Below are positions 1 through 43,634 of a DNA stretch of 64,000 nucleotides, piece after piece. Source of the DNA: an uncultured bacterium (GTDB lineage Bacteria; Omnitrophota; Gorgyraeia; Duberdicusellales; CBEUCJ01). The DNA is taken from NCBI GenBank assembly GCA_965541615.1, contig CBEUCJ010000004.1:21167-85166 (forward strand). Direction: 5' to 3'. Positions within the stretch are counted from its first letter, which is position 1, and every line of letters begins with the position of its first letter. The position numbers were made by a program, and so were the translations under genes. A model generated the notes under the pieces. The model searched no databases. It was given only the letters and a program-made list of their open reading frames with translations, and was not told the DNA's origin.

Positions 1-709
1 ACCTATTGCTCAAAAATGTGCAGAAGTATTTATGAAGAGGCATCCTGAAGCAAACATTTCAGTGCGTGGTGGAGGTTCAGGGGTAGGCATTGCTGCTTTA
101 ATTGATGGGATATGTGACATTGCTGATTCTTCCCGTCCTATGAAAGATAAGGAAATTAAGAAAGCTTTAGAAAAAGGAGTTAATCCTGTTGCTCACGTCA
201 TAGCTATGGATGGGATTGCAGTAATTGTTCATCCTTCAAATCCAGTTAATGAACTTACACTCACTCAACTTAAAGATATCTATACTGGCAAAATATCTAA
301 CTGGGCTGAATTAGGAGGAAAAAACCAAAAAATAGTTGTTATATCGCGTGATGTTGCTTCAGGAACATTTGAATGTTTTAAAAAGTTAGTTTTAAAAAAA
401 GAACGTGTGCGTCCAGATGCTCTGCTTCAGGCTTCAAATGCAGCAGTCCTTTCAGTTGTTAAACGAACAGAAGGAGCTATTGGTTATGTGGGATTGGGGT
501 ATTTGAATTCAGAAGTTAAAGCTTTAAAGATTGAGGGGGTTTTTCCTTCAGAAGATACTGTATTAAAAGGCACCTATCCTATCTCAAGACCCTTATTTAT
601 GTATACCAACGGCAAACCAAAAGGATTAGCAAAAGATTTTATTGATTTTGTTTTAAGTAAAGAAGGACAAAAAATAGTTAAAGAACAGGGTTTTATTCCT
701 TTAAAGTAA
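1..709 (+). CDS. pstS: Phosphate ABC transporter substrate-binding protein PstS (5' end cut by window edge)
   Basis: PstS/PBP family sequence (…GGGSGVGI…RPM…); followed by pstC/pstA/pstB/phoU in canonical order. Confidence 0.85.
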   Translation, partial: PIAQKCAEVFMKRHPEANISVRGGGSGVGIAALIDGICDIADSSRPMKDKEIKKALEKGVNPVAHVIAMDGIAVIVHPSNPVNELTLTQLKDIYTGKISNWAELGGKNQKIVVISRDVASGTFECFKKLVLKKERVRPDALLQASNAAVLSVVKRTEGAIGYVGLGYLNSEVKALKIEGVFPSEDTVLKGTYPISRPLFMYTNGKPKGLAKDFIDFVLSKEGQKIVKEQGFIPLK

Positions 710-711
710 GT

Positions 712-1587
712 ATGAGGAAAGTAAAAGAAAATTTAATTAAAGGATTTTTTTGTCTGTTTGCTTCTCTTTCCATTTTCTTTCTTTTAGGGATCGTTATAGT
801 TTTATTTAAAGAAGGGTTGCCAATTTTTAAAGTTACTTCTCTTAAAAAATTTCTATTTGGTAAATTCTGGTATCCTACTTCTGAGCCTCCTGAATTTGGG
901 ATATTACCTCTTATTTTAGGCTCTTTCTTAGTCACATTTGGAGCATTAGTTATTTCTGTGCCTTTAGGGGTAGCTTCTGCTATCTACATCTCAGAAATAG
1001 CTTCTCCTAAAATTAAGGAATTTATAAAACCTGTAATTGAACTTCTTGCAGGTATTCCTTCTGTAGTCTATGGATTTTTTGGAATGGTAGTTGTAGCACC
1101 TCAGATAGCAAAAATCTTTAATTTAGCTGTAGGATTAAACGCTTTTACAGCTTCTTTGATTTTGGGTATTATGGCAATCCCTACTATTACAAGTATCTCT
1201 GAAGATGCAATTTCAGCAGTCCCCAAAAGATTTAAAGAAGCTTCTTACGCTTTAGGAGCAAATAAATGGGAGACTGTTATAAAAGTAACTCTTCCTGCTG
1301 CAGGAGGAGGAATAACTACAGCTATTATTCTGGGTATAGCAAGAGTTATTGGTGAGACAATGACAGTGTTAATGGTTGCAGGAGGAGCTCCTGTTATTCC
1401 ACACTCTTTTTTTGAACCTGTGAGAACCATGACAGCTACTATTGCTGCTGAGATGGGAGAGACAGTTGTAGGAAGTGCGCATTTCTGTGCCCTTTTTGCT
1501 ATTGCTATAGTTCTTTTTTTAATTACTTTAAGTTTTAATATCCTTGCTGATGTTTTATCTCAAAGATTTAGAAAAAGATTGGGATGA
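712..1587 (+). CDS. pstC: Phosphate ABC transporter permease PstC
   Basis: 6-TM permease; EAS-Y-ALGA motif region; operon context. Confidence 0.85.
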   Translation: MRKVKENLIKGFFCLFASLSIFFLLGIVIVLFKEGLPIFKVTSLKKFLFGKFWYPTSEPPEFGILPLILGSFLVTFGALVISVPLGVASAIYISEIASPKIKEFIKPVIELLAGIPSVVYGFFGMVVVAPQIAKIFNLAVGLNAFTASLILGIMAIPTITSISEDAISAVPKRFKEASYALGANKWETVIKVTLPAAGGGITTAIILGIARVIGETMTVLMVAGGAPVIPHSFFEPVRTMTATIAAEMGETVVGSAHFCALFAIAIVLFLITLSFNILADVLSQRFRKRLG

Positions 1588-2435
1588 ATTTAAGAAAGAT
1601 TAAAGAATTTATTGGCTTTACGATTTTAAGATTAGCTACTTTTACTATTCTTTTTTCTCTTTTTACTATTTTTTACTTTATAAGCATCAGGGGAATAAAA
1701 GTAATAAACTGGCAGTTTTTAACTCAAGTGCCTTCTCAAGGAATGACTTCTGGAGGAATTTTTCCTGCAATTTTGGGAACATTTTATTTAACTCTTTGTG
1801 CGGTTTGTTTTTCTTTACCTTTAGGAGTTGCAGCAGCTATATATTTAGCTGAATACGCAAAAGAAGGAAAGTTGGTAAGAATAATTCGCATTGGAATAAA
1901 TAATCTTGCTGGTGTTCCTTCTATAGTATTTGGGCTTTTTGGATTAGCAGTCTTTGTTAAATATCTTGGTTTTGGTGTATCAATTTTATCTGGTGGACTT
2001 ACTTTGGGGATATTGATTTTGCCTGTGATTATTCGTGCTTCTGAAGAAGCAATATTGGCTGTTCCAAAGTTTTTAAGAGAAGCCTCATTAGCTTTAGGAG
2101 CAACTAAATGGCAGACTATTTACAGAGTCGTTTTACCAAATGCTCTTCCAGGAATTTTGACTGGTGCAATATTAGGAATTGGAAGAGCTGCAGGTGAGAC
2201 TGCTCCTATACTTTTTACTGCAGTTACATTTTATTCAGCAAAGCTTCCTACTTCAATCTTTAGTGAAGTTCAGGCGCTTCCATATCACATTTATGCTTTA
2301 ATGACTGAAGGCACACACCCTGAGCTTCAGGTCCCTATTGCTTATGGAACAGCTTTAGTTTTACTCTTTTTAGTTTTGGGTATAGATTTGGTTGCTATTG
2401 TTATACGTAAAAGAGCGAGAAAAAGAAAATGGTAG
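1584..2435 (+). CDS. pstA: Phosphate ABC transporter permease PstA
   Basis: Paralogous permease with EAxxALGAT motif; overlaps pstC stop (translational coupling). Confidence 0.85.
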
Positions 2436-3205
2436 AAAAAATCACCAGTAAAAAAGATGTTAAAATCTCTATTCGTAATTTAAATATCTGGTATCAAGAT
2501 ACACATGTAATAAAGAATGTAAATCTTGATATTGAGAAGAATAAAGTTACAGCAATTATTGGTCCTTCAGGTTGTGGTAAATCCACACTTATAAAATCAA
2601 TAAATAGAATGCTGGATATAATACCTGAGGCAAAAGTAAAGGGTACAATTTTATTAGATGGTCAAAATATTTATGATATTGATGAGACAATTTTAAGAAA
2701 AAGAATAGGGATGGTATTTCAGATGCCTAATCCTTTTCCTAAATCTATATTTGAGAATGTTGCTTATGGATTAAAGATTCATAAGATGTTTAAAGATAAA
2801 CAAGATCTTTATTTTAAAGTTGAAAAGGCATTGAAACAAGCTGCTTTATGGGATGAGGTTAAAGATAATCTTGATAAATTTGCTTTAGATTTATCTGGAG
2901 GCCAACAGCAGAGATTATGTATTGCTCGGTGTATTGCTCTTGAACCAGAAGTTATATTATTTGATGAACCATGTTCTGCTTTGGATCCGGTTGCTACTGC
3001 AAAGATTGAGGAGTTGATTGAAAATTTAAAGAGAAATTATACAATAGTAATCGTTACTCACAATATGCAACAGGCAGCCAGGATTTCAGATTACACTGCT
3101 TTTTTATACTTGGGGAATTTGGTTGAATTTGGTCCTACACAAAAAATATTTACTACTCCTCAAAATAAATTGACTGAGAGGTATTTAACAGGTAGATTTG
3201 GATAA
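2429..3205 (+). CDS. pstB: Phosphate ABC transporter ATP-binding protein PstB
   Basis: Walker [18 protein letters not shown] signature; context. Confidence 0.9.
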
Positions 3206-3217
3206 AAAGGAGAGGTT

Positions 3218-3868
3218 ATGTTAGAAGAAAAATTAAACGAATTAAAGAAAAAATTAATTGAGGAAGCAAACTTAGCTCAAGATATGGTTAAAAAATCAAT
3301 TGAGGGGCTTATTAAAAAAAGAAAAGAAATTTTAGAAAAGGTAACTAAAGAATATGAACCTAAAATGAATGAGTTAGAAATAGAATTAGATGAATTATGC
3401 ACAAATTTAATTGCTCTTTATCAGCCAGAAGCAGGAGATTTAAGGACCATTCTTATGATTTTAAAGATGAATAATGATTTAGAAAGGATTGGAGATTTAG
3501 CAGTAAATATATCTGAAAGTGCTTTATATTTAATAGAAAAACCACCCGTTAAACCTTTAATTGACATTCCCAGAATGGCAGAAGAATCTATAGATATGTT
3601 AAAAAATGCAATTAACTCTTTTATAAATAAAGATGCAAATTTAGCAAAATCTGTATGTGAGAAAGATAGTGTTGTTGACAATTTAAGAGACCAGATTTTA
3701 AGAGAATTGATCACTTACATGAGTTCTGATCCTTCTACCATTGAGCGCTCAATCCACCTAATAAGAATCTCACGCTGTTTAGAACGCATAGCTGATTTAT
3801 CCACAAATATCTGTGAAGATGTAATATTTATGGTAGAAGGAAAAATTATAAAGCACCATAAAGAATAA
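3218..3868 (+). CDS. phoU: Phosphate uptake regulator PhoU
   Basis: Two PhoU repeats; follows pstB; RBS GGAGAGG upstream. Confidence 0.85.
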   Translation: MLEEKLNELKKKLIEEANLAQDMVKKSIEGLIKKRKEILEKVTKEYEPKMNELEIELDELCTNLIALYQPEAGDLRTILMILKMNNDLERIGDLAVNISESALYLIEKPPVKPLIDIPRMAEESIDMLKNAINSFINKDANLAKSVCEKDSVVDNLRDQILRELITYMSSDPSTIERSIHLIRISRCLERIADLSTNICEDVIFMVEGKIIKHHKE

Positions 3869-4030
3869 AGGATAAAAAAAGACTTTTGAATTTTGGTTTT
3901 GCTCTGTTTGTTATATAATAAGTTATGAAGTCGGTATTGATGAAGGAGCAGATGATAGCATTGAACATACATATCTAACTTTTGTGCTTGATACTCTATT
4001 CAAATTCAGTCTAAAGGTTAAAGTTTAAAT

Positions 4031-4051
4031 ATGCTTAGATTAGTTAAGCAT
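4031..4051. repeat. Perfect 7-bp inverted repeat ATGCTTA-N7-TAAGCAT between phoU and the methyltransferase gene
   Basis: Seen directly in sequence; no clear U-tract, so either weak terminator or operator. Confidence 0.3.
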
Positions 4052-4054
4052 TAG

Positions 4055-4939
4055 TTGAAGATAGTTTTTATGAGTGAGACAAACAGAAAAATAAAAGTGG
4101 AGGCGAATCTAACTAATACAGAATTACTGCAAATAAAAAAGGGAAGTGTATTCTTTGAAGCAAAAGAAGGAAAGATTAAGATAATTCATGACGATTTTTT
4201 AATGACAAACTTGATTAAAGAAAATTCAATCGATTTAATAGTAACTTCTCCTCCATATAATGTGGATATTCATTATAATTCATTTCAAGATGATATTCCT
4301 TATGAGAGATACCTTGAATTTACAGAAAAATGGTTAAAAAAGGCATTTACTTTAACAAAACCAGATGGAAGGATGTGTCTAAATATACCTTTAGATAAAA
4401 GCAAAGGTAGAAAAGGAGCAGGGTTTCAGACAGTTTATGCTGATATAGTAAATATTGCTAAAAAAGTAGGTTGGAAGTATTTTTCAACAATAATATGGAA
4501 TGAAGGGAATATATCCAGAAGAACTGCTTGGGGATCTTGGTTAAGTGCCAGAGCTCCTTATGTTATTGCTCCTGTGGAAGTAATTATAATTTTTTATAAA
4601 GAAAGATGGCAAAGGATAAAAAATGGGGAATCAGATATAAAAAGAGAGGAGTTTGTGGAATGGACTAATGGATTATGGACATTTCCAGGAGAAAGTAAGA
4701 AAAAAGTCGGACATCCTGCACCTTTTCCCGTCGAATTACCCAAAAGATGTATTAAACTCTTCAGTTTTGTAGGTGATACTGTATTAGATCCATTCTTAGG
4801 AAGCGGAAGTACTTTAATTGCATGTGCTTTATTAGACAGAAAGGGGATTGGAGTGGAGATAGATAAAAATTATTGCAAATTAGCTAAAAATAGATTGATA
4901 AAGGAATGTAAGATAAACCAGAAAAAGTTATGGGAATAA
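4055..4939 (+). CDS. DNA methyltransferase, beta-class amino-MTase (SPPY motif IV before FxGSG motif I), probably N4-cytosine
   Basis: Motifs SPPY (cat.) and DPFLGSGST (SAM binding) in beta-class order; ORF opens with TTG at 4055, first ATG at 4070. Confidence 0.75.
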   Translation: MKIVFMSETNRKIKVEANLTNTELLQIKKGSVFFEAKEGKIKIIHDDFLMTNLIKENSIDLIVTSPPYNVDIHYNSFQDDIPYERYLEFTEKWLKKAFTLTKPDGRMCLNIPLDKSKGRKGAGFQTVYADIVNIAKKVGWKYFSTIIWNEGNISRRTAWGSWLSARAPYVIAPVEVIIIFYKERWQRIKNGESDIKREEFVEWTNGLWTFPGESKKKVGHPAPFPVELPKRCIKLFSFVGDTVLDPFLGSGSTLIACALLDRKGIGVEIDKNYCKLAKNRLIKECKINQKKLWE

Positions 4940-5210
4940 TCAAATAAGAAAAGGATTTAAATGTAAAAAAGAAATATTAGAAAAATTAAAAGAGTGTTAC
5001 AATAGTATAGTAAGAAATAAATTCAGAGGAAGTTTCTTAGATGCGCTAAAAAATTTTGATTCTTTAGCTGAAAAGGAACTTCGTAAAATACTTATAAATT
5101 ATTATTCGAACCAGCGTAGTCAGGATCAAGCATGGAAAACATGTAAAGGTTCACTATACGAATATGCAGTTTTTAAATATATACAAAATGTTGTAGAAAA
5201 AGATAAAAAA

Positions 5211-5687
5211 TTGAAAAACAAGATTATAGCTATAATGGGAGAAGAGGCTTTAAATGCATATAAAGATCAGATAGTTATTAAAAACTGGTGCGATATTTTC
5301 CCTGATGTAGACATTCTTGTAATCGAAAAACAGACCAATTCAGTAATAGCTATTTTATCATGTAAAACCAGCTTAAGAGAAAGATTGACAGAGACAGCTT
5401 TTTGGAGAAGAGAACTTGAAAAGAAAAGGAGTACGAAAAAAATAAAGTTAGTTTTTATAACTACAGACAAGGATAATGAATTAAAGACAGAAACAAATCG
5501 TTATGTCCTCTTACATGTAGTTGACCATACTTTTATAACAGATCCAAAGAAATATAATGAATTGATAGAAGCATATAAAAAGAAATATGGTAATCGAGAT
5601 GATTTCTATAAACTTCTTATAAAAATTGAATTTATAGATAAAATAAAGGGCTTTATAGAGCTTCTTCTAAATAGGCAAAATAATTGA
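5211..5687 (+). CDS. Putative restriction endonuclease partner of the MTase (start unresolved; the same frame is open from 4917 with no start codon)
   Basis: Adjacent and co-oriented with MTase; D…(D/E)xK-like segment (DVDILVIEKQ); about 98 stop-free upstream codons in an AT-rich genome. Confidence 0.35.
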   Translation: MKNKIIAIMGEEALNAYKDQIVIKNWCDIFPDVDILVIEKQTNSVIAILSCKTSLRERLTETAFWRRELEKKRSTKKIKLVFITTDKDNELKTETNRYVLLHVVDHTFITDPKKYNELIEAYKKKYGNRDDFYKLLIKIEFIDKIKGFIELLLNRQNN

Positions 5688-5768: not shown

Positions 5769-8700
5769 TTACTCTGAGAATATTTCTTTAAATATCTTTT
5801 TCTTCCATTTTTTGTATATCTTTTCCCACAGTTGCATCCATACTCCATGGACAGAGATTTGTTTGGTAACTTCATTGTTAGTTTCATTTACTTCACCTAT
5901 TTGGTTTTCAGGGTCTACTATTACTTTAAAGATCAGAGGTCCTGGTGTTTGTGGAGTATAAGAGAATGAGAAAGAAGATGAAGAGTTAGCTTTAAGTCTT
6001 GGTAAAATTTTGGTATGAATAGGAGTATTGTTTGCTTTGACCAGAACTTTAACATTGTTTAAGTCTATTTTCCCTGCGTTATGTACAGTTATAAATAAAT
6101 TAACAGGTTCTCTCACATTTACTTTCAGAGAAGGCTTTAAGATAAAATCTTGAGGATAAATGCTTAAATCTGCTCCTTTTTCTTGGAAATAGTAAGGAGG
6201 ATACTCTCCTCCTTTTACATAAAAATAACTCTCCTTTGTTATTTCTCTTACTATCTTACCAAAATATACTTGAGCAGTAGCGCGAATCTTAAATTTCCCT
6301 GGATATACTGCTTTATAAGGAAAAGTAACTTGGAACTCTCCTTTATTTACAACAGATGGCCAAACTTTTACATAACTTGCATATCCAAATTTAGGATCTC
6401 TTTCTTTTTCAACATTGATGATCTCTATTTTTACCACAATATTTCTTAAACTCCTTCCAGAGATGTTTTTAAATTGCGCACCTATACTTTTAGTTTCTCC
6501 TACTTTTATAGGAGTATCAGTTCCCCAAAATTTTGTAACCATAAGAGGAATTCTTTTCTGTATTTCTTTTTCTTTCTGCTTTCTTTTATATGCTTGTTGG
6601 ACTGCTTTTTCAAAATTTCCATAAGTATAAGTTACTTCATTGTTATCTTCATTTACTTCTCTTACTCTATTATAGGGATCAACACTGATCACCATTTTAA
6701 AAGGAGGCTTTTGTGAGTAATTTATAGAAAAATCACGATACTTTTTTGCAGGTATTATTCTTGCAAAACTTGCCAAAACTTTAGATTTTACTTCATTTTC
6801 TTCTATATAAAAAACTTTAAATTTAACCAAAGCAGTTGCAGATTTGGTACCTCTATTAAACACTCTAACTTTACAGCTCTTTCTATCAAGCTTGACATCT
6901 TCTTTTCTTAATACAAAATCGACTCCTTTAACAGGTAGAAATTCTGGAACAGATATTTTTTTGGAGATAACATTATCTTTTTCATTTAGATCTTTGTATC
7001 CTTTTGTTTTAAGAATAGCTTTTATTATGTGAGTTCCACTCTCAGCTTTCCATACAATTAAGTCATTTTCTGGTTTACCATCACCAATTATTATCTTTTC
7101 TCCTGCAGGAATCTTTGTAGAGATATGTTTTATTAATGCAGAATCTACATAAACAAAAATATCTACAGGAGCTTTTGCCTTTCCTTTATTACTAACATTG
7201 ATAAGAAATTTAACTTCATCTTTAGCTTGAAAAGATTCAGGATTAAATTCTAATGAATCTATAGATAAATCATACTCAGGTAAACCAACCTCAACAGTAA
7301 AATAAATACTATTGTTTGATTCATTAAGTTCAGATATTGAATTGTGGGGGTCTACTGTAACTTTAAATGTATATTTGCGAGCTTTATCGAAAGTATATTG
7401 AATACTCGCTATTCTATAAGAGTTTCTTTTAATATAAGGAATGAAAACAGAAGTTATAGGTTTACCATCCTTTTCAAATAAAACATGCACATTTTTTGCA
7501 GGTCTATTTCCAAAGTTATAAACTTTCACCCATATTCTGGTTGGAACTCCTATTTGAGGAGCACCTCCTTTTTCAGATTCTACTCCAAAACCAGGTTCTG
7601 CCAATTTTCCAGAGATTTCTTCAGTTTGTAATAAAAGGTCAGGTTCTGGTGCTATATATACAGACTCATAAGCAGAATTGTTATTTTCCTTAAGTTCATC
7701 GATCTTATTTTCAGAGTCGACTATAGCAACAAATTTGTGTTTACCTGTTCTTTTTATATTGTATGCAGTTTCAATAGCTATAGATTCCTCTTTTTTTAAT
7801 TCTTTTATTATCTGCTTAAAGATAATTTTCCCTCCACATTTGATAACAAAAGGAATTTCTGAAGCATCTATTGCTCCTTTATTTTCAATCACAGCTTTAA
7901 TATTTATTGATTCATCTAATTTAGGTTTTGAAGGAGTAATATCTATAGATTTTACAGTTAAATCAGGACGATTAGGGCCTACTCCTATAGGATAAGGAAG
8001 TCCTTCAGGTATCTCAATACTCACCTCTTTTATTCCTATCCCCCACTTACGTAGCTTTGGAACACTTTCACCTGAGAAACAACTTTTATGTTTATAAAAA
8101 TTTATACAAGCTCCTGCTTCGTTTACGGCTGCTCCTGCTGCAACTACAAGAGAATCAAGTGACACATAAACTCTATAAGTTTTTCCTGCCTCCACAGGTA
8201 CATTTTTAAATTCATACGTTATTTCTTTTGAAATTACTTCATCTGCATCTAAAGCATCTACAGTGTAATCTACAACATCTAATATAGTTCCTATACCTAC
8301 TACTCCTGTTGCTTCTTCTATAGCTTCACTTGCAACTGTTTGAGCGACTTCTTCAGCCCAATCTACCCATTCTTTTTTATTCGTTTTAGCCCAAATAACT
8401 TTTTCTACTATTGGTGAGTTTAAAGGACCTGTAGCTCCTTCATGGACTCCTACACTTATCTTTGCTTTATAAAAATTCTGACCACCAGCAAAAGAACTGG
8501 CATTAATTACTCCAAAAAGAGAGACTTTAAATCTAATATTTACTTTGAATTTTGTTCCAGGTTTTATATTAACGAAACCAAAGGTTTTATAATGATATGT
8601 TCTTAGAGAAGCACGGGCTCCACCTATCCAGGCAGTTGCTGAGCACCAGGATTTTATTCCTGGACTTCTTTGTTTCCATGCAAATTCAGCTGTAGCTTGA

Positions 8701-8843
8701 GCCCCAGATGGATCTTTTTTCTTTGATTCTTTATCTATGTAAACTCCTCCTCCATAAATTTCTGCTTTTTGAATAGGTTCTTTGGCATATATAAAAGGGA
8801 TGAAGATGATTATTAAGAATAAAATTACAGCTTTTTTCTTCAT
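5769..8843 (-). CDS. Large secreted surface protein with N-terminal signal peptide and at least 4-5 CARDB-like repeats
   Basis: Signal peptide MKKKAVILFLIIIFIPFIYA; repeated DP.N.I.E.NE.NN motifs typical of CARDB domains; only minus-strand gene in window. Confidence 0.7.
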   Translation of the reverse strand: MKKKAVILFLIIIFIPFIYAKEPIQKAEIYGGGVYIDKESKKKDPSGAQATAEFAWKQRSPGIKSWCSATAWIGGARASLRTYHYKTFGFVNIKPGTKFKVNIRFKVSLFGVINASSFAGGQNFYKAKISVGVHEGATGPLNSPIVEKVIWAKTNKKEWVDWAEEVAQTVASEAIEEATGVVGIGTILDVVDYTVDALDADEVISKEITYEFKNVPVEAGKTYRVYVSLDSLVVAAGAAVNEAGACINFYKHKSCFSGESVPKLRKWGIGIKEVSIEIPEGLPYPIGVGPNRPDLTVKSIDITPSKPKLDESINIKAVIENKGAIDASEIPFVIKCGGKIIFKQIIKELKKEESIAIETAYNIKRTGKHKFVAIVDSENKIDELKENNNSAYESVYIAPEPDLLLQTEEISGKLAEPGFGVESEKGGAPQIGVPTRIWVKVYNFGNRPAKNVHVLFEKDGKPITSVFIPYIKRNSYRIASIQYTFDKARKYTFKVTVDPHNSISELNESNNSIYFTVEVGLPEYDLSIDSLEFNPESFQAKDEVKFLINVSNKGKAKAPVDIFVYVDSALIKHISTKIPAGEKIIIGDGKPENDLIVWKAESGTHIIKAILKTKGYKDLNEKDNVISKKISVPEFLPVKGVDFVLRKEDVKLDRKSCKVRVFNRGTKSATALVKFKVFYIEENEVKSKVLASFARIIPAKKYRDFSINYSQKPPFKMVISVDPYNRVREVNEDNNEVTYTYGNFEKAVQQAYKRKQKEKEIQKRIPLMVTKFWGTDTPIKVGETKSIGAQFKNISGRSLRNIVVKIEIINVEKERDPKFGYASYVKVWPSVVNKGEFQVTFPYKAVYPGKFKIRATAQVYFGKIVREITKESYFYVKGGEYPPYYFQEKGADLSIYPQDFILKPSLKVNVREPVNLFITVHNAGKIDLNNVKVLVKANNTPIHTKILPRLKANSSSSFSFSYTPQTPGPLIFKVIVDPENQIGEVNETNNEVTKQISVHGVWMQLWEKIYKKWKKKIFKEIFSE

Positions 8844-23933: not shown

Positions 23934-24987
23934 AGCTTTAAAAGTTTTAGGTAGTCTTTCTTATTTTGAATCTACAGGTTACCATCTAAAAAACAGTGAT
24001 TTTTTAGATTTTATTTACCCTGCTAAAGCAGGTTCAAAAATTTTTAGATTATTTAAAATTTTACAGACTAATTTTTGCGAAGGAGATTGTAAGTATTGTA
24101 TTAACAGAAAGTATAGGAACACACAAAGGTATTATCTTTCTCCTAAAAGATTAGCCTCAGTATTTATGGAGTATTATAAAAAAAGAAAAGTAGATGGTCT
24201 ATTTTTATCTTCTGGAGTATTTAAATCTCCAAATTTTATGCAAGAAAAAATGTTAGAGACGATTTTGATATTAAGAAAGAAATTTTTCTATAAAGGCTTT
24301 ATTCATCTTAAAATATTACCAGGAGCAGATTTAGAACTGATAAAGAAATTTATAGGTTTGGTAGATAGAGTTTCTATAAATATAGAAGCTCCTACTCAAA
24401 ATCTGTTTAATACATTGACCTCTACCAAAAATTTTAAAGAAGATATTTTAAAAAGGCTTAAATTCTTATCAGAGTTAAATAAGAAAAAAGTATTCAAAAA
24501 AGGAGTGACTACTCAAATGATAGTTGGAATCTCAAATGAAAAAGACATTAATGTCTTAAAATCAGCTTATTTTCTTTACAAAAATTTCAATTTAAGTAGA
24601 GTCTATTACAGTGGCTTTATTCCTGTAAAAAATACGCCTTTAGAGAATCTTCCTATGTGTTCTTTAAAGAGAGAGTTGAGAATTTATCAAGCAGATATTT
24701 TATTAAGAAAGTATGGTTTTTCTGTTGAGGATTTAGTCTTTGATAAAGAAGGAAATCTTCCTTTACATACAGATCCTAAAACTTTATATGCTTTAAATCA
24801 TCCAGAATTATTTCCTATTAATATTAATAAAGCTAGTTTTAAAGAACTGTTGAAAATCCCTGGAGTAGGACCTATTAGTGCAAAAAGGATTTTATTTTTG
24901 AGAAAAGAAAAAAAGATATCTAAATTGACTGAATTAGAAAAAATAGGAGTAAACCTTAAAAGAGCCAAAGACTATGTTAAGTTCTAA
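23917..24987 (+). CDS. Radical SAM protein with C-terminal helix-hairpin-helix (putative DNA modification/repair radical SAM family)
   Basis: CEGDCKYC (CxxxCxxC) motif; C-terminal IPGVGPISAKRI HhH. Confidence 0.65.
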   Translation: MQNLDRALKVLGSLSYFESTGYHLKNSDFLDFIYPAKAGSKIFRLFKILQTNFCEGDCKYCINRKYRNTQRYYLSPKRLASVFMEYYKKRKVDGLFLSSGVFKSPNFMQEKMLETILILRKKFFYKGFIHLKILPGADLELIKKFIGLVDRVSINIEAPTQNLFNTLTSTKNFKEDILKRLKFLSELNKKKVFKKGVTTQMIVGISNEKDINVLKSAYFLYKNFNLSRVYYSGFIPVKNTPLENLPMCSLKRELRIYQADILLRKYGFSVEDLVFDKEGNLPLHTDPKTLYALNHPELFPININKASFKELLKIPGVGPISAKRILFLRKEKKISKLTELEKIGVNLKRAKDYVKF

Positions 24988-25759
24988 AGACTGGATAAAG
25001 TTTTTAGGGACAGCTGGTGCTAGATTTGTGATGATAAAACAATTAAGATTTTCAGGTGGTATTTGGTTACATCTAAAAGGAAAAAATATTATCTTAGATC
25101 CAGGACCTGGAAGTCTTTTAAGATGTGCAAAATCAAAACCTCCTTTAGATGCCACAAAATTAGATGCTATAATTTTAACTCATAAACATTTAGATCACTC
25201 TTGTGATGTAAACGTAATGATTGAAGCTATGACTGAAGGAGGTTTTAAAAAGAGAGGAGTTCTTTTTTGTCCAAGAGATTGCTTAGATACAGATCCAGTA
25301 GTTTTAAATTATTTGAGACCTCATTTAGAAAAGATAGAGATTTTAGAAGAGAATAAGAGTTTCAGACTTAAAGATTTAGAGTTTTTTTGTCCATTTAGAA
25401 ATATCCACCCTGTAGAGACCTATGGAATAGTATTCAAATTAAATAATATTAAAATTTCTTTTGTTTCAGATACTGCTTTTTGTCCTGAGATCATAGAGAA
25501 ATATAAAGCTGAGGTTATGGTATTAAATGTAGTTTTTTTTAAAAAGAGACCTGAATTTCAGCATTTAAGTTGCGAGGATGCAGAAGAGATTATAAAAAGA
25601 GCAAAACCTAAACTTACAATCTTAACTCACTTTGGTATGACTATGCTAAGAAATAACCCTGAAAAAATAGCCAGAACTTTGTCTCAAGCTACAAATCTGA
25701 AAGTTATAAGTGCTTGGGATGGGATGAGTATAGATTTGGAAAATATAGAAAATATTTAA
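24974..25759 (+). CDS. MBL-fold metallo-hydrolase
   Basis: THKHLDHSCD metal-binding motif. Confidence 0.7.
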   Translation: MLSSKDWIKFLGTAGARFVMIKQLRFSGGIWLHLKGKNIILDPGPGSLLRCAKSKPPLDATKLDAIILTHKHLDHSCDVNVMIEAMTEGGFKKRGVLFCPRDCLDTDPVVLNYLRPHLEKIEILEENKSFRLKDLEFFCPFRNIHPVETYGIVFKLNNIKISFVSDTAFCPEIIEKYKAEVMVLNVVFFKKRPEFQHLSCEDAEEIIKRAKPKLTILTHFGMTMLRNNPEKIARTLSQATNLKVISAWDGMSIDLENIENI

Positions 25760-27352: not shown

Positions 27353-28198
27353 ATGAATTGTAAAAAAGAATTAGAAACCTTAAAAAAGTATTTCCAAAAA
27401 GAAAATGAAGTAATATTAGCTTTCCTTTTTGGTTCTCATGCAGAGGAGAGAGCGAGAAGCTTTTCTGATTGGGATATAGGAGTTTATTTTAAGCCAAAAG
27501 AATATTTAGAATTAGTTTCATCTTGTAGATACCCAAAAGAAGAAAAAATCTGGTCTGATTTGGTAGAGATATTAAAAACAGATAATATTGATTTTGTAGT
27601 ATTAAACAGAGCCTCTCCTGATTTAGTTTATAAAGTGTTAAAAGATGGGATCCCTTTAACAATTAAAGATGAAAAATTGTATTATGATCTTTTATGTAAA
27701 GCAAGTTATGAATCAATAGATTGGTGGCAATTTGTAGATGAATACTGGAGAATAAGAGAAAATGCAAAGTCTTTGAGTCCTCAGGCAAAAGCGCAGGTTC
27801 AGAAAAGGCTTATTTTTTTAGAAGAACAATTTCAGGATTTTGAATATTTTAAAAAATTAACTTTTTCTGTTTATTCTACAGATAGAAAGGAACGCAGAAA
27901 TGTAGAAAGATGGATAGAGAATTTGGTAATTTCAGCTATAGATATTGCTCAGATTTTTTTAGCTTCAGATAAAAAAGAGATTCCTCAAACTTACAAAGAG
28001 ATTTTAAAAGTATTCACCACTATTTACCTTAACTTTCCTCCTGAATCTGCTGAGAAATTTTCTGATTTTGTAAAATTGAGAAATATAATTACCCATGAAT
28101 ATTTAGATATTAGATGGCAAAAGATAAAAGATTTTATTGACCAAGGCTATTTTTTATATTCCCAGTTTATAGAAAAAGTAAAAGCTAAATTATTGTAA
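27353..28198 (+). CDS. Fused MntA-like nucleotidyltransferase / HepT-like (DUF86) HEPN protein
   Basis: N-terminal LFGSHAEERARSFSDWDIG (NTase GS…D.D); C-terminal RNIITHEY (Rx4HxY HEPN motif). Confidence 0.65.
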   Translation: MNCKKELETLKKYFQKENEVILAFLFGSHAEERARSFSDWDIGVYFKPKEYLELVSSCRYPKEEKIWSDLVEILKTDNIDFVVLNRASPDLVYKVLKDGIPLTIKDEKLYYDLLCKASYESIDWWQFVDEYWRIRENAKSLSPQAKAQVQKRLIFLEEQFQDFEYFKKLTFSVYSTDRKERRNVERWIENLVISAIDIAQIFLASDKKEIPQTYKEILKVFTTIYLNFPPESAEKFSDFVKLRNIITHEYLDIRWQKIKDFIDQGYFLYSQFIEKVKAKLL

Positions 28199-28248
28199 TA
28201 ACCTGTAATTATATAGCACTCTCTTCAGCGAAGCACAGAAAAGTAATT

Positions 28249-28638
28249 TTGAGAAAGTATGGTATAATAGGAAATGTGAAAGAAGAGCAATTGAAAACAA
28301 AAATCATAGAAATTTTTGACAAATATTTAGGAGAAGAATATATATTATTTCTTTTTGGCTCTTCTTCTAAAAAAACTTCTGATATTACTTCAGATATAGA
28401 TTTGGCAGTTTATTGTGATTATACTATTTCTCCTCTTTTAGTTCTTAAAATAAAAGAAGAACTTGAGCATAAACTACATACTCTAAAGGATATAGATTTG
28501 ATAAACCTCACTGATACCACTATAAATAAAAATTTGTTAGAAAGCATCCTAAGGGAGAGCATTTTATGGAAGAAAGGCAAAAATTATCAAGAACTTTTGA
28601 AAAGTTTGAGAGAGCGTTTAGAAAATTTGAAGAGGTAG
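28249..28638 (+). CDS. Minimal nucleotidyltransferase (MNT) antitoxin-like
   Basis: LFGSSS…SDIDLAV NTase motif. Confidence 0.7.
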   Translation: MRKYGIIGNVKEEQLKTKIIEIFDKYLGEEYILFLFGSSSKKTSDITSDIDLAVYCDYTISPLLVLKIKEELEHKLHTLKDIDLINLTDTTINKNLLESILRESILWKKGKNYQELLKSLRERLENLKR

Positions 28639-28994
28639 TAAGATCACCCTATCTTTTTGAGTTTTTAAATGAAGAATTAATAATTGAAATATCTACTAAG
28701 AGATTTGAATATACTTTTGAAAGCCTATGGAAGACATTGAAAGAATTTTTGAGAGTAGAAGGAGTAATTTGTTCTACACCTTTGCAGTGCTTTAAAGAAG
28801 CTTTTAAAAGAGGACTTATAAAAGAAGAAGATGAGAGTATATTTGCTCAAATGATAGAAAAAAGAAATAGGATAGTTCATATATGTGGACTCGAAGAAGC
28901 AAAAGAGATTTATGAATTTATAAAGAAAGAAGAAGTGTATTCTGCTCTCCAGAATATTTATGAGAAACTAAAGGACACAATAAAATCTTCTTAA
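28566..28994 (+). CDS. HEPN-domain protein (HI0074-like NTase substrate-binding), toxin-like partner of preceding MNT
   Basis: RNRIVH (Rx4H) motif; overlaps MNT gene. Confidence 0.7.
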   Translation: MEERQKLSRTFEKFERAFRKFEEVVRSPYLFEFLNEELIIEISTKRFEYTFESLWKTLKEFLRVEGVICSTPLQCFKEAFKRGLIKEEDESIFAQMIEKRNRIVHICGLEEAKEIYEFIKKEEVYSALQNIYEKLKDTIKSS

Positions 28995-40206: not shown

Positions 40207-40470
40207 ATAAATTAGCTTTCTTAAAATAAACTTTTTAATACATGTAACACCTAATGCCATTTATTCAGCACTAAACTTTGGGGTTAGAAGATAATGTAAT
40301 AATTTTTTAGATATTAAAAATGGGGCATTTTATAAGGACTCTTTTTGTTTCAATACTTTTGTTAGAAAATAAAGAATATTTGCTTTTTGTATAATGATAT
40401 GTGATAATTTATTGATTTTAGAAAAAAGAAAAAAAATATTTTGAGAGTTATTTAAAATTTGCAAGATTAA

Positions 40471-40737
40471 TTAAGAAAAAAAGCCAATCACATTTTTGGA
40501 GAGGTTAAAGTATTAGTTTTTGGCTCAGTTGTAAAAGGAGACTATCTTTCAAATAGGGATATAGACATTTTAATCATAACTGAAAATTTGCCTCAAGAAT
40601 TTTTTGAGCAAGTTAAATTAAAACAAAAATTATTAGAAGGTTTAGAAGAGAATCCTTTCCAGATACATCTTGCTGCTCCTCAAATGTATCAAAGATGGTA
40701 TAAGAATTTTATAAAAGATAATTATTTAGAAGTTTAA
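40471..40737 (+). pseudogene. N-terminally truncated nucleotidyltransferase (MNT) paralogue of the gene at 41139; no start codon in frame
   Basis: …VLVFGSVVKGDY…DIDILIITENLP…FQIHLAAP…, about 55% aa identity to 41139 product; frame opens right after a TAA. Confidence 0.5.
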
Positions 40738-40747
40738 GAGGTGTCAA

Positions 40748-41142
40748 ATGGACATTGGATTCTTGAAAGAGAGAGCAAATGAATTTTTTGAAGAAGCGCA
40801 AGAATTATTAAAGAAAAAGAAGTATAATCTTTCAGTTTTCAATTTAGAGCAAGCAATTCAATTATGGATAAAATACTTGATTGGCAAGAAAATAGGAGAT
40901 TGGCCTAAGACGCATTTTTTTCAGAATTAATTCCTCAATTAGCTCAGGTTTATGAGGAAGAAAAGATTTTAGAATTTTATAAAGAAAATGAACTATTTTT
41001 TGATAGTTTAGAAGATGCTCATTTTACTTCTCGGTATTTTCCAAAAAAATTCACTGAAAATGTTATATTAAAACTTTTTGAATATTCTAAAAAATTTTTT
41101 AAATTGATTAAAGAGACTATTAATGAAGATTTTTCCCTATGA
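40748..41142 (+). pseudogene. HEPN-domain gene with -1 frameshift in a T7 run (about 40912-40918)
   Basis: Two consecutive ORF pieces; T8 would give …KTHFFSELIPQLAQV… continuing to HFTSRYFP HEPN motif. Confidence 0.55.
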
Positions 41143-41495
41143 AGAAAAGTCTGGTCGATATAATTTTACCTATACATAAAAAAAAGGAGATGTACTTTAG
41201 GAATTATAAGTCTTATTGTCAAGAAATTAAAAGAATAGCAAAATGTTCTTTGAAAGAAGTAAGAGTGTTAGTGTTTGGTTCAGTGGTAAAAGATAAACAT
41301 ACTCCAAGTAGTGATATCGATGTTTTAATAATTTCTAATAACCTTCCTGAAGAATTTGAAGAGAGAGAAAAGATCAAGACAAATATTAAGTCAAAAATAG
41401 ACCCCTTTTCTCCATTTCAGCTCCATTTAGCCACACCTAAGGAATTTAAAGAATGGTATGAAAACTTTTTGAAAGGTAATTATCTAGAAATATAA
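41139..41495 (+). CDS. Minimal nucleotidyltransferase (MNT)
   Basis: VLVFGSVVKDKHTPSSDIDVLII NTase motif. Confidence 0.7.
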   Translation: MKKSLVDIILPIHKKKEMYFRNYKSYCQEIKRIAKCSLKEVRVLVFGSVVKDKHTPSSDIDVLIISNNLPEEFEEREKIKTNIKSKIDPFSPFQLHLATPKEFKEWYENFLKGNYLEI

Positions 41496-41580: not shown

Positions 41581-42069
41581 ATGCCACACAGAAGGCATAG
41601 AAAAGGAATGATGTGGTGGCATATGAGGTTTATAGATGCAGGTTTTAGAATGACTTTGCCAAGACAAGCAATTATGGAGGTTTTAAGTAACACTACAGAG
41701 CATTTGAGTGCTGAAGAAATATACCTTAAAGTGCGCAAAAGATATCCTGGAATAGGACTTACAACTGTGTACAGAACTTTAGATATTCTAGTTAACATGG
41801 GACTCATATCTAAATTTGATTTTGGAGATGGCAGAGCACGTTATGAATTATCAGAGACTTCAAAGGGTGCAAAACCTCATCATCATCATTTGGTATGTAG
41901 AGAGTGTGGGAAAATAATAGATTATACAGAGTTTATAGATGATGAAGTAGAATTAATTAACAACATTCAGAAAAAACTTTCAGAAAAATATAACTTTAAG
42001 ATAACAAATCACATTATTCAATTTTATGGATTGTGTGATAAATGTCAGCAGAAGAATAAAGTAACGTAA
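41581..42069 (+). CDS. fur: Ferric uptake regulator family transcriptional regulator (Fur/Zur/PerR)
   Basis: Winged-helix N-terminus; HHHHLVCRECG and CDKC metal sites. Confidence 0.8.
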   Translation: MPHRRHRKGMMWWHMRFIDAGFRMTLPRQAIMEVLSNTTEHLSAEEIYLKVRKRYPGIGLTTVYRTLDILVNMGLISKFDFGDGRARYELSETSKGAKPHHHHLVCRECGKIIDYTEFIDDEVELINNIQKKLSEKYNFKITNHIIQFYGLCDKCQQKNKVT

Positions 42070-42107: not shown

Positions 42108-42127
42108 AATAAAAGGGGGTGAGAAAA

Positions 42128-42355
42128 ATGAGAGGAAGAAATTTTTGGGGACCAGGATTTTGGAAATTTGGGTATTTAGGATATCCTTATTATCCAAGCT
42201 ATTTTGGATTTCCTTTTTTCTGGGGTAGAGGAAGAGGGAATCCATTTCCTTTTTGTAGATGGTTTCCATTTTTACCTCGTGGATGGTGGGCGATGCCATT
42301 CTTTTTAAGTATGTGGCAAAATATTTATCCATATCAAGGAGGAACTACAAAATGA
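42128..42355 (+). CDS. Small W/F/Y/P/G-rich protein 1 (75 aa; no coiled-coil tail)
   Basis: RBS GGGGGTG; about 45% aromatic+Pro+Gly; ORF-track start 42119 (GTG) replaced by ATG 42128. Confidence 0.55.
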   Translation: MRGRNFWGPGFWKFGYLGYPYYPSYFGFPFFWGRGRGNPFPFCRWFPFLPRGWWAMPFFLSMWQNIYPYQGGTTK

Positions 42356-42519
42356 TTTTTAGAGAAAGCTTTTTAAAATTTATTGATTCTAAATCTTTGC
42401 ATAATGATTCTGCTTACTTTGCTATACATTGGCCCTATTTTTGGAATAGGACTCTTATAGGAAAGAATGTTCAAAAAAAGAAAGAAGGAATAAAAGAAAA
42501 AGTTAAAAAAAGGAGGTGA
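42352..42519 (+). CDS. Small ORF (55 aa) with strong RBS, aromatic/basic
   Basis: GGAGG 8 nt upstream of ATG 42352; fills gap between neighbours. Confidence 0.35.
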   Translation: MIFRESFLKFIDSKSLHNDSAYFAIHWPYFWNRTLIGKNVQKKKEGIKEKVKKRR

Positions 42520-42755
42520 TAGTTATGCCTTTCGGAATGGGACCAGCTGGTTGGTTTTTAGCACCATACATTTATCCTCAGATTTTAAATTTTTATCAAA
42601 ATTTTCTAAGAATGTGGGGTTATCCATTTTATGGATTCTCAATGCCCTTTTATGGAGGTGATGAATTAAGTTACTTAAAACAATTAAAGCAGAATTTAGA
42701 ACTTCAGTTACAAGACATTGAAAGAAGGATTAAAGAATTAGAATCTACTACTTAA
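42516..42755 (+). CDS. Small W/F/Y/P/G-rich protein 2 with C-terminal coiled-coil (…LELQLQDIERRIKELEST)
   Basis: RBS GGAGGTGA; MPFGMGPAGWF… N-terminus; heptad-like C-terminus. Confidence 0.65.
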   Translation: MIVMPFGMGPAGWFLAPYIYPQILNFYQNFLRMWGYPFYGFSMPFYGGDELSYLKQLKQNLELQLQDIERRIKELESTT

Positions 42756-42777: not shown

Positions 42778-43080
42778 ATGAGAGGTTATAGACATAGAAA
42801 TATGTATTATTTAACAGGATTACCTGGTTGGATGAGATTTGGATTTAGTCCTGGGTGGGGAGGTTTACCTCCTGGAGCTCAATATATGTTTACAGGAAAT
42901 TGGCCTACTCTGCAGGCAAATTCTTTATGGTCAAATATTTCTCAAAATGCAACATTTGATCCTTATAAAGTCTCTCAGATTAGTAAAGAGCAAGAGTTGC
43001 AGCTTTTAAAGCAACAGGCAGAAGCTTTAAAAGCTCAGCTTGAAAGAATAGAAAAAAGAGTTCAAGAGTTAGAGTCTTAA
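42778..43080 (+). CDS. Small W/F/Y/P/G-rich protein 3 with C-terminal coiled-coil (…LKAQLERIEKRVQELES)
   Basis: RBS GGAGGTGA; paralogue of the preceding two genes. Confidence 0.65.
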   Translation: MRGYRHRNMYYLTGLPGWMRFGFSPGWGGLPPGAQYMFTGNWPTLQANSLWSNISQNATFDPYKVSQISKEQELQLLKQQAEALKAQLERIEKRVQELES

Positions 43081-43115: not shown

Positions 43116-43634
43116 ATGAAAATTTGCGTAACAGCTCAAGGAAATACTTTAGAATCTTTGGTAGATCCCAGATTTGGAAGAGCTCAATATTTTATAATTT
43201 ATGATACTGAGACTGATTCTTTTGAAAGTATCTTAAATCCAAATTTAAATCTATTTTCAGGAGCAGGAATTCAAAGTGCACAACTTATAGTACAAAAAGG
43301 AGTTCAAGTTTTAATTACAGGAAACGTGGGACCCAATGCTTTTAATGTATTAACAGCTGCTGGAATAAATATAATAACAGGTATAATGGGAGTATCAGTA
43401 AAGGAAGCTATAGAAAGATTTAAGAGAGGAGAGTTGAATTTTACTTTTTCTCCAACAGTCTCTAAACACTTTGGAGCTCAAATGTATCCACCAAACTTTG
43501 GGACGATGCCATATCAATTTCAAACTTCTAAAGCACAAGAACTTAATATGTTAAAACAACAACTTCAATTTTTAAAACAGCAGATCGAGATGATAAACCA
43601 GAGAATAAAGGAGTTAGAAAAAAATGAGCAATAA
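43116..43634 (+). CDS. NifB/NifX-fold protein ('dinitrogenase FeMo-cofactor-binding' domain) with a C-terminal aromatic+coiled-coil extension homologous to the preceding small proteins
   Basis: …DPRFGRAQYFIIYD…ITGNVGPNAF…; tail GAQMYPPNFGTMPYQF…LKQQLQFLKQQIEMINQRIKELE. Confidence 0.65.
   Translation: MKICVTAQGNTLESLVDPRFGRAQYFIIYDTETDSFESILNPNLNLFSGAGIQSAQLIVQKGVQVLITGNVGPNAFNVLTAAGINIITGIMGVSVKEAIERFKRGELNFTFSPTVSKHFGAQMYPPNFGTMPYQFQTSKAQELNMLKQQLQFLKQQIEMINQRIKELEKNEQ

Follow-up and report, generated by a model that had tools for sequence, protein, structure and literature searches.

The window, by which the whole analysed stretch of 64,000 nt is meant, carries a DNA methylase gene that is directly followed by a co-oriented endonuclease gene. 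The gene order pstSCAB-phoU-M-R-CARDB is common to the window and four closely related metagenome contigs. The features of the locus are as follows.

4070..4939, plus strand: intact beta-class DNA methyltransferase of 289 aa, probably N4-cytosine-specific (Pfam, PADLOC and PDB matches)
4247..4258, plus strand: catalytic motif IV, SPPY, at residue 60 of the methylase (read from the sequence; invariant in 25 of 25 aligned homologues)
4793..4813, plus strand: SAM-binding motif I, FLGSGST, at residue 242 (read from the sequence; C-terminal to motif IV)
4930..4947, plus strand: original endonuclease start, now a 5-codon stub, ATG GGA ATA ATC AAA TAA (homologous ATG in intact alleles)
4942..4944, plus strand: AAA run with a 1-nt deletion, AAAA in the contigs of the relatives (4 of 4; alignment and BLAST gap listing)
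4944..5687, plus strand: body of the CCGG-family endonuclease (Pfam RE_BsaWI), 247 codons plus stop, no further lesion
4944..5210, plus strand: N-terminal helical domain and long connecting helix, missing from the annotated short ORF (conserved residues, predicted model)
5301..5384, plus strand: catalytic and recognition core with P125-D126 (5301-5306), K146 (5364-5366) and R150-E151-R152 (5376-5384), invariant in 33-42 homologues
5235..5687, plus strand: short ORF of the gene callers, beginning at ATG 5235 (150 aa) or TTG 5211 (158 aa), a remnant whose first residue is number 103 or 95, respectively, of the real protein
5769-8843, minus strand: CARDB gene, the sole minus-strand ORF of at least 110 aa in the window

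The first-pass annotation had described the CARDB gene as the only one on the opposite strand, which holds for ORFs of at least 110 aa in the window. It had also regarded the placement of the gene pair as accessory, a view to which the distribution of the cassette across domains lends support but composition does not, as the GC content of the pair (28-32%) shows no anomaly against the 30% of the window. Promoter or terminator signals at the pair did not rise above chance.

The methylase and its probable specificity

The methylase is, as had been recognized beforehand, an intact beta-class enzyme, in which SPPY precedes FLGSGST; this order of motif IV before motif I is the beta permutation, and the SAM-binding and catalytic motifs are invariant in the homologues. 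Compared with the gene of the relatives, the protein is 98.6% identical over its full length, with four differences that are all located at variable positions. The start codon is more probably ATG 4070, which yields 289 aa, the length of the gene call in the relatives, than TTG 4055. Exact-sequence look-ups of the methylase in both versions (289 and 294 aa) and of the 150-aa ORF downstream gave no match.

With PF01555 (N6_N4_Mtase, E 8e-48), the order of motif IV before motif I and SPPY, the methylase shares the hallmarks of beta-class N4-cytosine methyltransferases of the M.PvuII type and of TTHA0409. The latter (2ZIE) is the closest solved relative in the PDB search (E 2e-31); the annotated N4-cytosine methyltransferases 8S9N/8S9M (E 1e-17 to 4e-18) and M.PvuII (1e-7) also match, and PADLOC MTase_II matches at E 4e-94. 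S-P-P-[YF] is the signature of N4-cytosine and D/N-P-P-Y that of N6-adenine methylation. As the N6-adenine beta-class enzymes CcrM, DpnA, M.MboIIA and M.RsrI likewise match (1e-9 to 1e-14), the assignment rests on the serine of SPPY, which is consistent with an enzyme of the m4C type; NCBIfam returned for the methylase only sub-threshold adenine-methylase equivalogs.

The endonuclease reading frame and its family

Downstream of TAA 4914-4916, frame 0 (positions divisible by 3) runs without interruption from 4917 up to its stop codon (5685-5687), and a six-frame ORF scan confirmed the approximately 98 additional codons upstream of the short ORF that the first-pass annotation had reported. The first canonical start in this frame is TTG 5211, as stated there, with no ATG, GTG or TTG earlier, while the first in-frame ATG is located at 5235 and not at 5232. 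A start-less leader of 98 codons compares with at most 24 codons in the other 71 six-frame ORFs of at least 100 aa in the window. At the base composition of the window, 98 codons would be free of stops with a probability of 8e-5 and, given this, free of starts with one of 3e-3, which leaves the previous chance estimate of about 3e-4 at the right order of magnitude.

The gene is, however, not an endonuclease without a start codon. Its start is ATG 4930, which is out of frame and had been missed; read in the +1 frame, ATGGGAATAATCAAATAA encodes MGIIK* and terminates at TAA 4945-4947, whereby the stub overlaps with the methylase stop (4937-4939) by 10 nt. The intact alleles P0001, P0127 and P0128 open with MGIIKIRKGF at the homologous ATG, which in the relatives is the sole canonical start in the open frame. 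Alignment of the junction with the relatives shows 131 of 132 columns identical and one gap, in agreement with the BLAST gap listing: one A is missing at 4942-4944, from the run that spans codons 5-6, and with respect to ATG 4930 the 247 codons after the deletion are shifted to the -1 frame. Among the earlier suggestions, that of a frameshift or a sequencing error, with the check directed at 4917-4960, is therefore borne out, while a non-canonical start is neither required nor supported. In the window, the endonuclease frame has no intact translatable path from its start codon, and the locus represents a disrupted type II restriction-modification system.

The four metagenome contigs, 98-99% identical on the nucleotide level, carry an intact 252-aa endonuclease gene; these close relatives come from metagenomes only, and the four contigs, derived from few related samples, may represent one population. 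The endonuclease body of the window is 99.1% identical to the intact alleles and the upstream 98 codons are 100% conserved, while the intact allele P0128 has the T147, K187 and N222 of the window. Conservation of the upstream extension in homologues, on which the first-pass annotation had made its reading depend, was thus found, and the impression of a protein-like sequence proved correct. Searches recovered 201 endonuclease homologues, and those listed are 240-252 aa long, cover 93-98% of the query and possess invariant residues throughout. The start-less stretch corresponds to the N-terminal 40% of an endonuclease of approximately 250 aa, with Y24, F43, E48, R52, Y59, Q67, A68, W69, K73, G74, Y77 and E78 invariant or near-invariant; among these, Q67 is invariant and E78 (5160-5162) near-invariant.

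The second gene encodes a CCGG-family PD-(D/E)XK endonuclease, an assignment based on the Pfam profile and on the fold. RE_BsaWI (PF18643) matches with E 3e-31, obtained from the short form alone, which retains the whole domain, and with 108.1 bits against a gathering cut-off of 26.2; together with N6_N4_Mtase in the neighbouring gene, the match upholds the proposed restriction-modification (R-M) pair. The predicted model, with helices at residues 9-26, 31-36, 38-52 and 57-86, resembles in a fold comparison the solved CCGG-family members, and NCBI labels homologues of 73% identity 'BsaWI family type II restriction enzyme'. On the other hand, PDB sequences searched with phmmer and in two profile searches (42-sequence profile) at E <= 10 yielded no restriction enzyme, BsaWI itself included, which leaves fold comparison as the only link to solved structures; NCBIfam holds no family and PADLOC no model for it, and the plasmid and phage collections contain no homologue.

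BsaWI, which recognizes W/CCGGW, is among the closest known counterparts of the frameshifted gene of the window and shares with it a two-part plan, in which a domain of three helices at the N-terminus is joined through a long connecting helix to a PD-(D/E)XK core, at 272 aa versus approximately 250 aa. In BsaWI, the N-domain (1-69) makes a swapped dimer and helix H4 bears N81/K84/K85 and the catalytic E92, with the single mutation K85A in this helix abolishing activity (PMC4652773). A permuted PD...K...D/E site with an R-(D/E)R CCGG-recognition motif typifies the CCGG family (PMC6344858). In the window endonuclease, residue roles are assigned by spacing and not by residue-level structural alignment; on this basis the invariant P125-D126, K146 and E155 would form the permuted PD...K...D/E active site, together with E78 on the minor-groove helix. 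R150-E151-R152, which corresponds to the motif with which the recognition helix begins, is invariant in 42 sequences and located at K+4..+6, and the same spacings are found for D145/K165/R169-D170-R171 of BsaWI (D-to-K 20; R(D/E)R at K+4..+6), as is the distance of 11 residues from Q/N to E. The two differ in the candidate for the second acidic residue, which in the window endonuclease is E155 (K+9) and in BsaWI D at K+10, and in that the outer-base reader K85 of BsaWI is replaced by Thr/Ser/Asn at the equivalent position of the window family. PfoI, PspGI, AgeI, Ecl18kI, NgoMIV, Kpn2I, Cfr10I, Bse634I, SgrAI and EcoRII-C are only 13-19% identical to the window endonuclease; of these, PfoI, PspGI and Ecl18kI flip the central base (CCNGG or CCWGG).

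The abundance of candidate targets in the window provides little guidance, as the counts of WCCGGW, CCGG, CCWGG and CCSGG are too small, or deviate in the wrong direction, for assigning specificity. CCGG occurs 4 times versus 10.1 +/- 3.2 expected, a mild depletion based on small counts, and WCCGGW twice versus 4.1 expected, which at such small counts is not significant. CCWGG is over-represented (60 versus 37 expected), a weak argument that the target is a different sequence. A literature search for an m4C TCCGGA methylase found nothing.

Members of the subfamily occur widely among thermophilic Bacteria and Archaea, located behind an SPPY methylase. Of 30 related loci, at least 26 keep the arrangement of methylase followed by endonuclease, and an ordinary in-frame ATG or GTG start is present in all four close relatives as well as in 23 further loci, although start positions and codons drift in the family, with GTG starts and, in L010, an Ile at the usual Met position. 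In another bacterium (L021), the cassette is located inside the pst operon. Disrupted endonuclease homologues occur in three other genomes, by frameshifts in L008 and L030 and an early stop in L025, and remnants in 4 of 30 loci (L031-L034), one of them (L034) beside an intact methylase. A seemingly shortened methylase variant, L041, was discarded as a chimeric contig ending in adapter sequence. The window contains a second decayed accessory pair, MNT/HEPN with in-frame stops. The locus under study is in all probability a standard type IIP R-M operon, methylase then endonuclease, that has been disrupted.

Origin of the missing base

Between positions 1-29004 of the window and the contig k141_97890, approximately 300 substitutions and three indel events are observed. 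Two of the indels, of 3 nt and 12 nt, preserve the frame, while the third, the 1-nt event at 4942-4944, is the only frame-breaker in 29 kb; none of the 998 other homopolymers of at least four bases (189 of at least six and 68 of at least seven) differs over the same distance. As a single frame-breaking indel is accompanied by 998 unchanged homopolymers, a genuine mutation is favoured, and we are fairly confident that the deletion is a genuine loss-of-function event, which is judged to be very recent because the rest of the endonuclease gene is unblemished. The decay of the MNT/HEPN pair in the window and the disrupted or remnant endonuclease homologues in other genomes also speak for a real mutation. 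The dN/dS ratio of the endonuclease body is 0.31, calculated from only seven differences (the R and M genes differ at seven positions each), too few for the ratio to be informative.

Were the missing base instead a sequencing or assembly error, the organism would have AAAA, an intact 252-aa endonuclease and a working R-M pair. A 1-nt homopolymer change is the classic type of such an error, the source is apparently a draft assembly (a contig of 190,618 nt) and the endonuclease gene, so close in identity to the intact alleles, bears no second lesion. However, the affected run is just 3-4 bases long, the 998 other homopolymers are free of 1-nt differences and one random error in 29 kb would fall into the 759-nt gene with a chance of only approximately 2.6%. 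Furthermore, the exact 150-aa truncated product (P0129) is on record from three sources, NCBI, ENA and Logan re-assemblies, for the contig of 190,618 nt, which emerged through cluster membership. An error is consequently regarded as unlikely.

Expression and significance of the disrupted pair

With a genuine deletion, ribosomes starting at ATG 4930 would stop after MGIIK at TAA 4945-4947, leaving the remaining 247 codons in the -1 frame, where the first canonical starts correspond to residues 95 (TTG 5211) and 103 (ATG 5235). The 10-nt overlap would couple translation of the endonuclease to that of the methylase. Products from the internal starts would be inactive, because they have lost one catalytic Glu together with the minor-groove helix and the domain that mediates dimerisation. 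Methylation of the target, probably at N4 of a cytosine within a site that contains CCGG, would continue without restriction. Most likely, the methylase is thus a de facto orphan and its endonuclease partner dead; the earlier proposal of a decaying endonuclease that leaves an orphan methylase is right in this outcome, but wrong in attributing it to a lost start.

Non-canonical translation might still supply the endonuclease in small amounts, resulting in attenuated restriction. Initiation could occur at ATA 4944, which is located 5 nt past the methylase stop and aligned to the Met start of most homologues, or the tRNA-Lys could slip by -1 at C-AAA-TAA and re-read one A to give MGIIKIRKGF. By sequence logic, either route restores a full-length, essentially wild-type protein; the endonuclease body is undamaged, and the drift of starts in the family, including GTG and the Ile of L010, is in line with such a reading. 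Initiation at ATA reaches well under 1% of the efficiency of ATG in tested bacteria, which counts against ATA 4944, as does the position itself, upstream of which a strong Shine-Dalgarno sequence is not evident. A slippery heptamer is absent, slippage during transcription or phase variation would require a tract longer than A3, and the frameshift is not conserved, with the close relatives and 23 other loci being in frame. Non-canonical production of the endonuclease is therefore considered very unlikely.

A programmed frameshift or phase-variable gene was rejected as well, given the site ATC AAA TAA with its A3 run, no slippery site and an arrangement that is not conserved. It is highly improbable that the deletion merely lowers the endonuclease to approximately 1% of its normal level, through occasional re-initiation at ATA 4944 by ribosomes that have completed the methylase or a -1 slip of those stalled at AAA-TAA, and thereby creates a naturally attenuated system; for such a system a connection to phosphate-starvation control might be suggested because the cassette is located just downstream of pstSCAB-phoU, and inside the pst operon in L021. 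Next to no credence is given to the 150/158-aa ORF itself being functional as a stand-alone catalytic domain, as, despite the retention of PD, K146, the R-E-R motif and the whole RE_BsaWI domain, it is without E78 (BsaWI E92), Q67/K70 (BsaWI N81/K84), K73 and the swapped dimer N-domain, all 120 listed homologues run approximately 95 residues further N-terminally with invariant residues there, and an upstream stretch of 98 codons that is open and 100% conserved would be unexpected if non-coding.

An endonuclease that is most likely dead, beside an intact methylase, places the locus with orphan methyltransferases that arise by endonuclease decay. It differs from other orphan methyltransferase cases in that decay has only just begun, with a single lesion and no others, and no regulatory role is implied. 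For annotation, the 150-aa 'hypothetical/BsaWI family' ORF is the tail of a frameshifted 252-aa gene, which should be labelled as a pseudogene or have the base rechecked, while the neighbouring methylase is to be treated as functionally orphan. The current understanding of R-M systems is unchanged by these findings. They do provide a clean, datable first step of restriction-gene decay, with intact and broken alleles coexisting in closely related environmental populations. As the subfamily is without a biochemically characterised member, intact alleles, for example P0128 or P0002, could be a source of a new thermostable enzyme of the CCGG type.

The frameshifted endonuclease gene

The locus is a type II system of standard make-up in all but one respect: a single-base change at codon 5/6 shifts the frame of its BsaWI-family endonuclease gene. 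The methylase beside it is intact. The features concerned are:

4070-4939, + strand: methylase gene, 289 aa, best read from ATG 4070, the start as called in relatives
4930-5687, + strand: endonuclease gene, original start ATG 4930, gene body from 4944
5769-8843, - strand: CARDB surface-protein gene

As the first-pass annotation described, the reading frame whose positions are multiples of three is open from after TAA 4914-4916 to the stop at 5685-5687, with no ATG, GTG or TTG before TTG 5211; the first in-frame ATG, which it placed at 5232, lies at 5235. With the window composition (30% G+C), a run of 98 codons without a stop has a probability of 8e-5, and the absence of start codons from such a run one of 3e-3. 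The six frames of the window contain 72 ORFs that reach 100 aa, and the second-longest start-less leader among them spans 24 codons, which makes this stretch a clear outlier.

The closest homologue, the intact 252-aa allele P0001 (97% identity, N-terminus MGIIKIRKGFKCKKE), is encoded on four metagenome contigs with 98-99% DNA identity to the window, which have in common with it the gene order pstS-C-A-B, phoU, methylase, endonuclease, CARDB (opposite strand) and PNP_UDP_1-family phosphorylase. Across the junction, 131 of 132 columns are identical in the five sequences; the relatives read ATG GGA ATA ATC AAA ATA AGA and the window ATG GGA ATA ATC AAA TAA GA, one A being missing from the AAAA run at 4942-4944. 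Consequently the frame from ATG 4930, whose first 10 nt are shared with the methylase gene up to its stop (4937-4939) in a typical coupled arrangement, ends after five codons, with the other 247 in the -1 frame.

A start codon thus exists but is now out of frame, which overturns the earlier headline of an endonuclease without one. The equivalent of ATG 4930 is the sole canonical start of the open frame in the relatives. Most other family members begin MRRGFKCK, their Met aligning with window ATA 4944, and a few start at a GTG some codons upstream, so that the start position drifts in the family, yet is always canonical. A non-canonical start, as also proposed, is therefore unsupported, and the third option raised, a frameshift or sequencing error near 4917-4960, supplied the mechanism.

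Mutation or sequencing error

The argument that the deletion is a genuine mutation is indirect, but makes this the likely reading. Compared with relative contig k141_97890 over window 1-29004 (L001 plus L035), the window shows about 300 substitutions but no more than three indel events: the 1-nt endonuclease deletion and two that keep the frame, of 3 nt (pstB) and 12 nt (CARDB gene). That AAAA is really present and the missing A a sequencing error is improbable, as none of the other homopolymers in this region (998 with four or more bases, among them 189 with six or more) differs from the relative and the assembly is thus not prone to such errors, while a single random error would be expected to hit the endonuclease gene about 2.6% of the time. 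Moreover, NCBI, Logan and ENA sources record the exact 150-aa product of the short ORF, P0129, its contig being 190,618 nt long; the same base call thus seems to have come out of more than one assembly of the data.

A genuine deletion would be very recent. The remaining endonuclease gene is 99.1% identical to that of P0001, with 3 synonymous and 4 non-synonymous differences and no second lesion in this comparison; the intact allele P0128 has T147, K187 and N222 in common with the window. Identity to relatives varies by region, from 98.1% in the first 11.7 kb (96-98% in the pst genes) to 99.5% over 10-29 kb. One further public sequence (L041:5665-6409; ENA ERZ584659 NODE_1615) matches the window to 4882, inside the methylase, and continues into an unrelated ORF (MEITLKVNQAYPSDSGRGIARLDPD...), which we take to resemble an archaeal CDC48-type ATPase N-domain; with this switch and an apparent Nextera adapter sequence at its terminus, it was rejected as a structural variant and is a chimeric assembly.

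Methylase, endonuclease family and residual activity

The methylase matches Pfam N6_N4_Mtase (E 8e-48) and the PADLOC type II methyltransferase model (E 4e-94), and its SPPY (residue 60) and FLGSGST (residue 242) motifs, both invariant across 25 homologues, follow the beta-class order, so that the intact beta-class enzyme of the first-pass annotation stands. A serine in SPPY is a textbook sign of m4C-type methylases. As the best solved relative, the Thermus putative methylase 2ZIE (E 2e-31), is followed by both annotated N4-cytosine methylases and N6-adenine beta-class enzymes, it is on this serine that the m4C label rests; the enzyme is probably N4-cytosine-specific.

The downstream frame is a match to Pfam RE_BsaWI (E 3e-31), and 201 homologues turned up in a search of 5.8 billion proteins; among the matches listed, lengths are 240-252 aa and coverage of the extended translation (256 codons) is 93-98%. 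Upstream of TTG 5211, Y24, F43, E48, R52, Y59, Q67, A68, W69, K73, G74 and Y77 are invariant in the alignments and E78 nearly so; this conservation goes against the refuting condition set earlier, an upstream extension that homologues do not conserve, and shows that the extension, earlier described as protein-like, is genuine coding sequence.

In BsaWI, the N-domain (residues 1-69) is swapped between subunits and makes the dimer, helix H4 carries the minor-groove/outer-base contacts N81, K84 and K85 plus active-site E92, K85A is inactive, and D145, K165, R169-D170-R171 and D175 are further key residues (PMC4652773). A permuted PD...K...D/E site and an R-(D/E)R CCGG reader define the CCGG family (PMC6344858). 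The window family has P125-D126 and resembles BsaWI in the spacing of 11 in Q67...E78 (N81...E92 in BsaWI), the D-to-K spacing of 20 (K146) and the invariant R150-E151-R152 at K+4 to K+6, and so carries both family-defining features. By profile score, motifs and fold the endonuclease belongs to RE_BsaWI and the structural CCGG family, with no direct similarity to BsaWI or any solved restriction enzyme found by HMMER, even with a 42-sequence profile. Given the R-E-R motif, the target is presumably a CCGG-containing site. In the 64 kb, CCGG occurs 4 times versus 10.1 +/- 3.2 expected and WCCGGW twice versus 4.1; CCWGG is over-represented (60 versus 37).

Products from TTG 5211 (residue 95) or ATG 5235 (residue 103) are without the dimerisation domain, helix H4 and E78, from which we infer inactivity. 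Low-level full-length enzyme, whether from a start at ATA 4944 or from -1 slippage at C-AAA-TAA, is very unlikely; the slippage would recreate the wild-type sequence exactly, but slippery site and long tract are both absent and the broken arrangement is unconserved in relatives.

Distribution, genomic setting and decay

The cassette, in the same order and tight spacing, occurs in MAGs of Archaeoglobales, Thermoplasmata, Geoglobus, Thermoproteota, Caldithrix, Desulfobacteraceae, Caldimicrobium and others, to which named protein matches add Fervidobacterium, with 64-90% methylase and 41-77% endonuclease identity. Its presence in unrelated flanks across such varied hosts supports horizontal spread and speaks for the accessory placement noted earlier. 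The G+C of the pair equals that of the host, and no endonuclease homologues were found in the plasmid or phage collections searched.

In an uncultured bacterium MAG (L021:1423-5475; 42% G+C) the cassette, 75% (methylase) and 56% (endonuclease) identical, is packed tightly between pstA and pstB within a pst operon. In the corresponding region of the window (32-5687), pstSCAB-phoU precedes it on the same strand at a distance of 200 nt, and the gap contains no terminator-like site. The link of the cassette with the phosphate-transport operon is thus recurrent and may reflect Pho-regulated expression.

Strand bias is extreme: of the 66 ORFs that reach 110 aa in window 1-64000, 65 are on the + strand, and the CARDB gene is, as first noted, the sole opposite-strand gene; GC and AT skew are both positive. 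Elsewhere, a 281-aa ORF within 27353-28994 (L035:17237-18878) combines nucleotidyltransferase (Polbeta/NTP_transf_2) and HepT-like domains and is followed by a 142-aa NTase_sub_bind/HepT-like ORF, together possibly a fused MNT-HepT module, near an Apyc1-like metallo-beta-lactamase gene (24974-25759). A Fur-like regulator gene (41581-42069) precedes three small Gly/Pro/aromatic-rich paralogous ORFs (42119-42355, 42516-42755, 42778-43080), two with a coiled-coil tail at the end, and a 172-aa ORF (43116-43634), NifX/NifB-like by eye, has a tail of the same kind.

Two further observations bear on whether the deletion is a mutation or an error. Accessory-gene pseudogenes occur in this genome, since an MNT/HEPN toxin-antitoxin-like pair (40400-41140) is decayed; the MNT copy lacks a start and is interrupted by in-frame stops ahead of 40471, its identity to the intact gene at 41139-41495 (118 aa) being 47%, and the HEPN-like partner occupies two frames, first 40748-40930 and then the +2 frame as far as about 41130. 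Among 30 related loci of other genomes, the endonuclease has a frameshift in two (L008:4001-4727, near residue 217; L030:4001-4700, residues 133-143), has an early stop in one (L025:4001-4714) and is reduced to short remnants in four (L031-L034; methylase intact in L034), while in L006 the methylase is split over two frames; these disruptions are either MAG errors or real decay.

This kind of system is already known, and the window gene is an uncharacterised, here disrupted, member. In P0001 (L001:6001-6759, L002-L004; window 5367-5369), residue 147, directly after the catalytic Lys, is Pro (SCKPSLRER); the window, P0128 and every one of the 40 other aligned homologues have Thr there. The relatives' Pro147 enzyme may thus have reduced activity of its own, or none, and if so the restriction gene would seem to have been relaxed independently in sister lineages.
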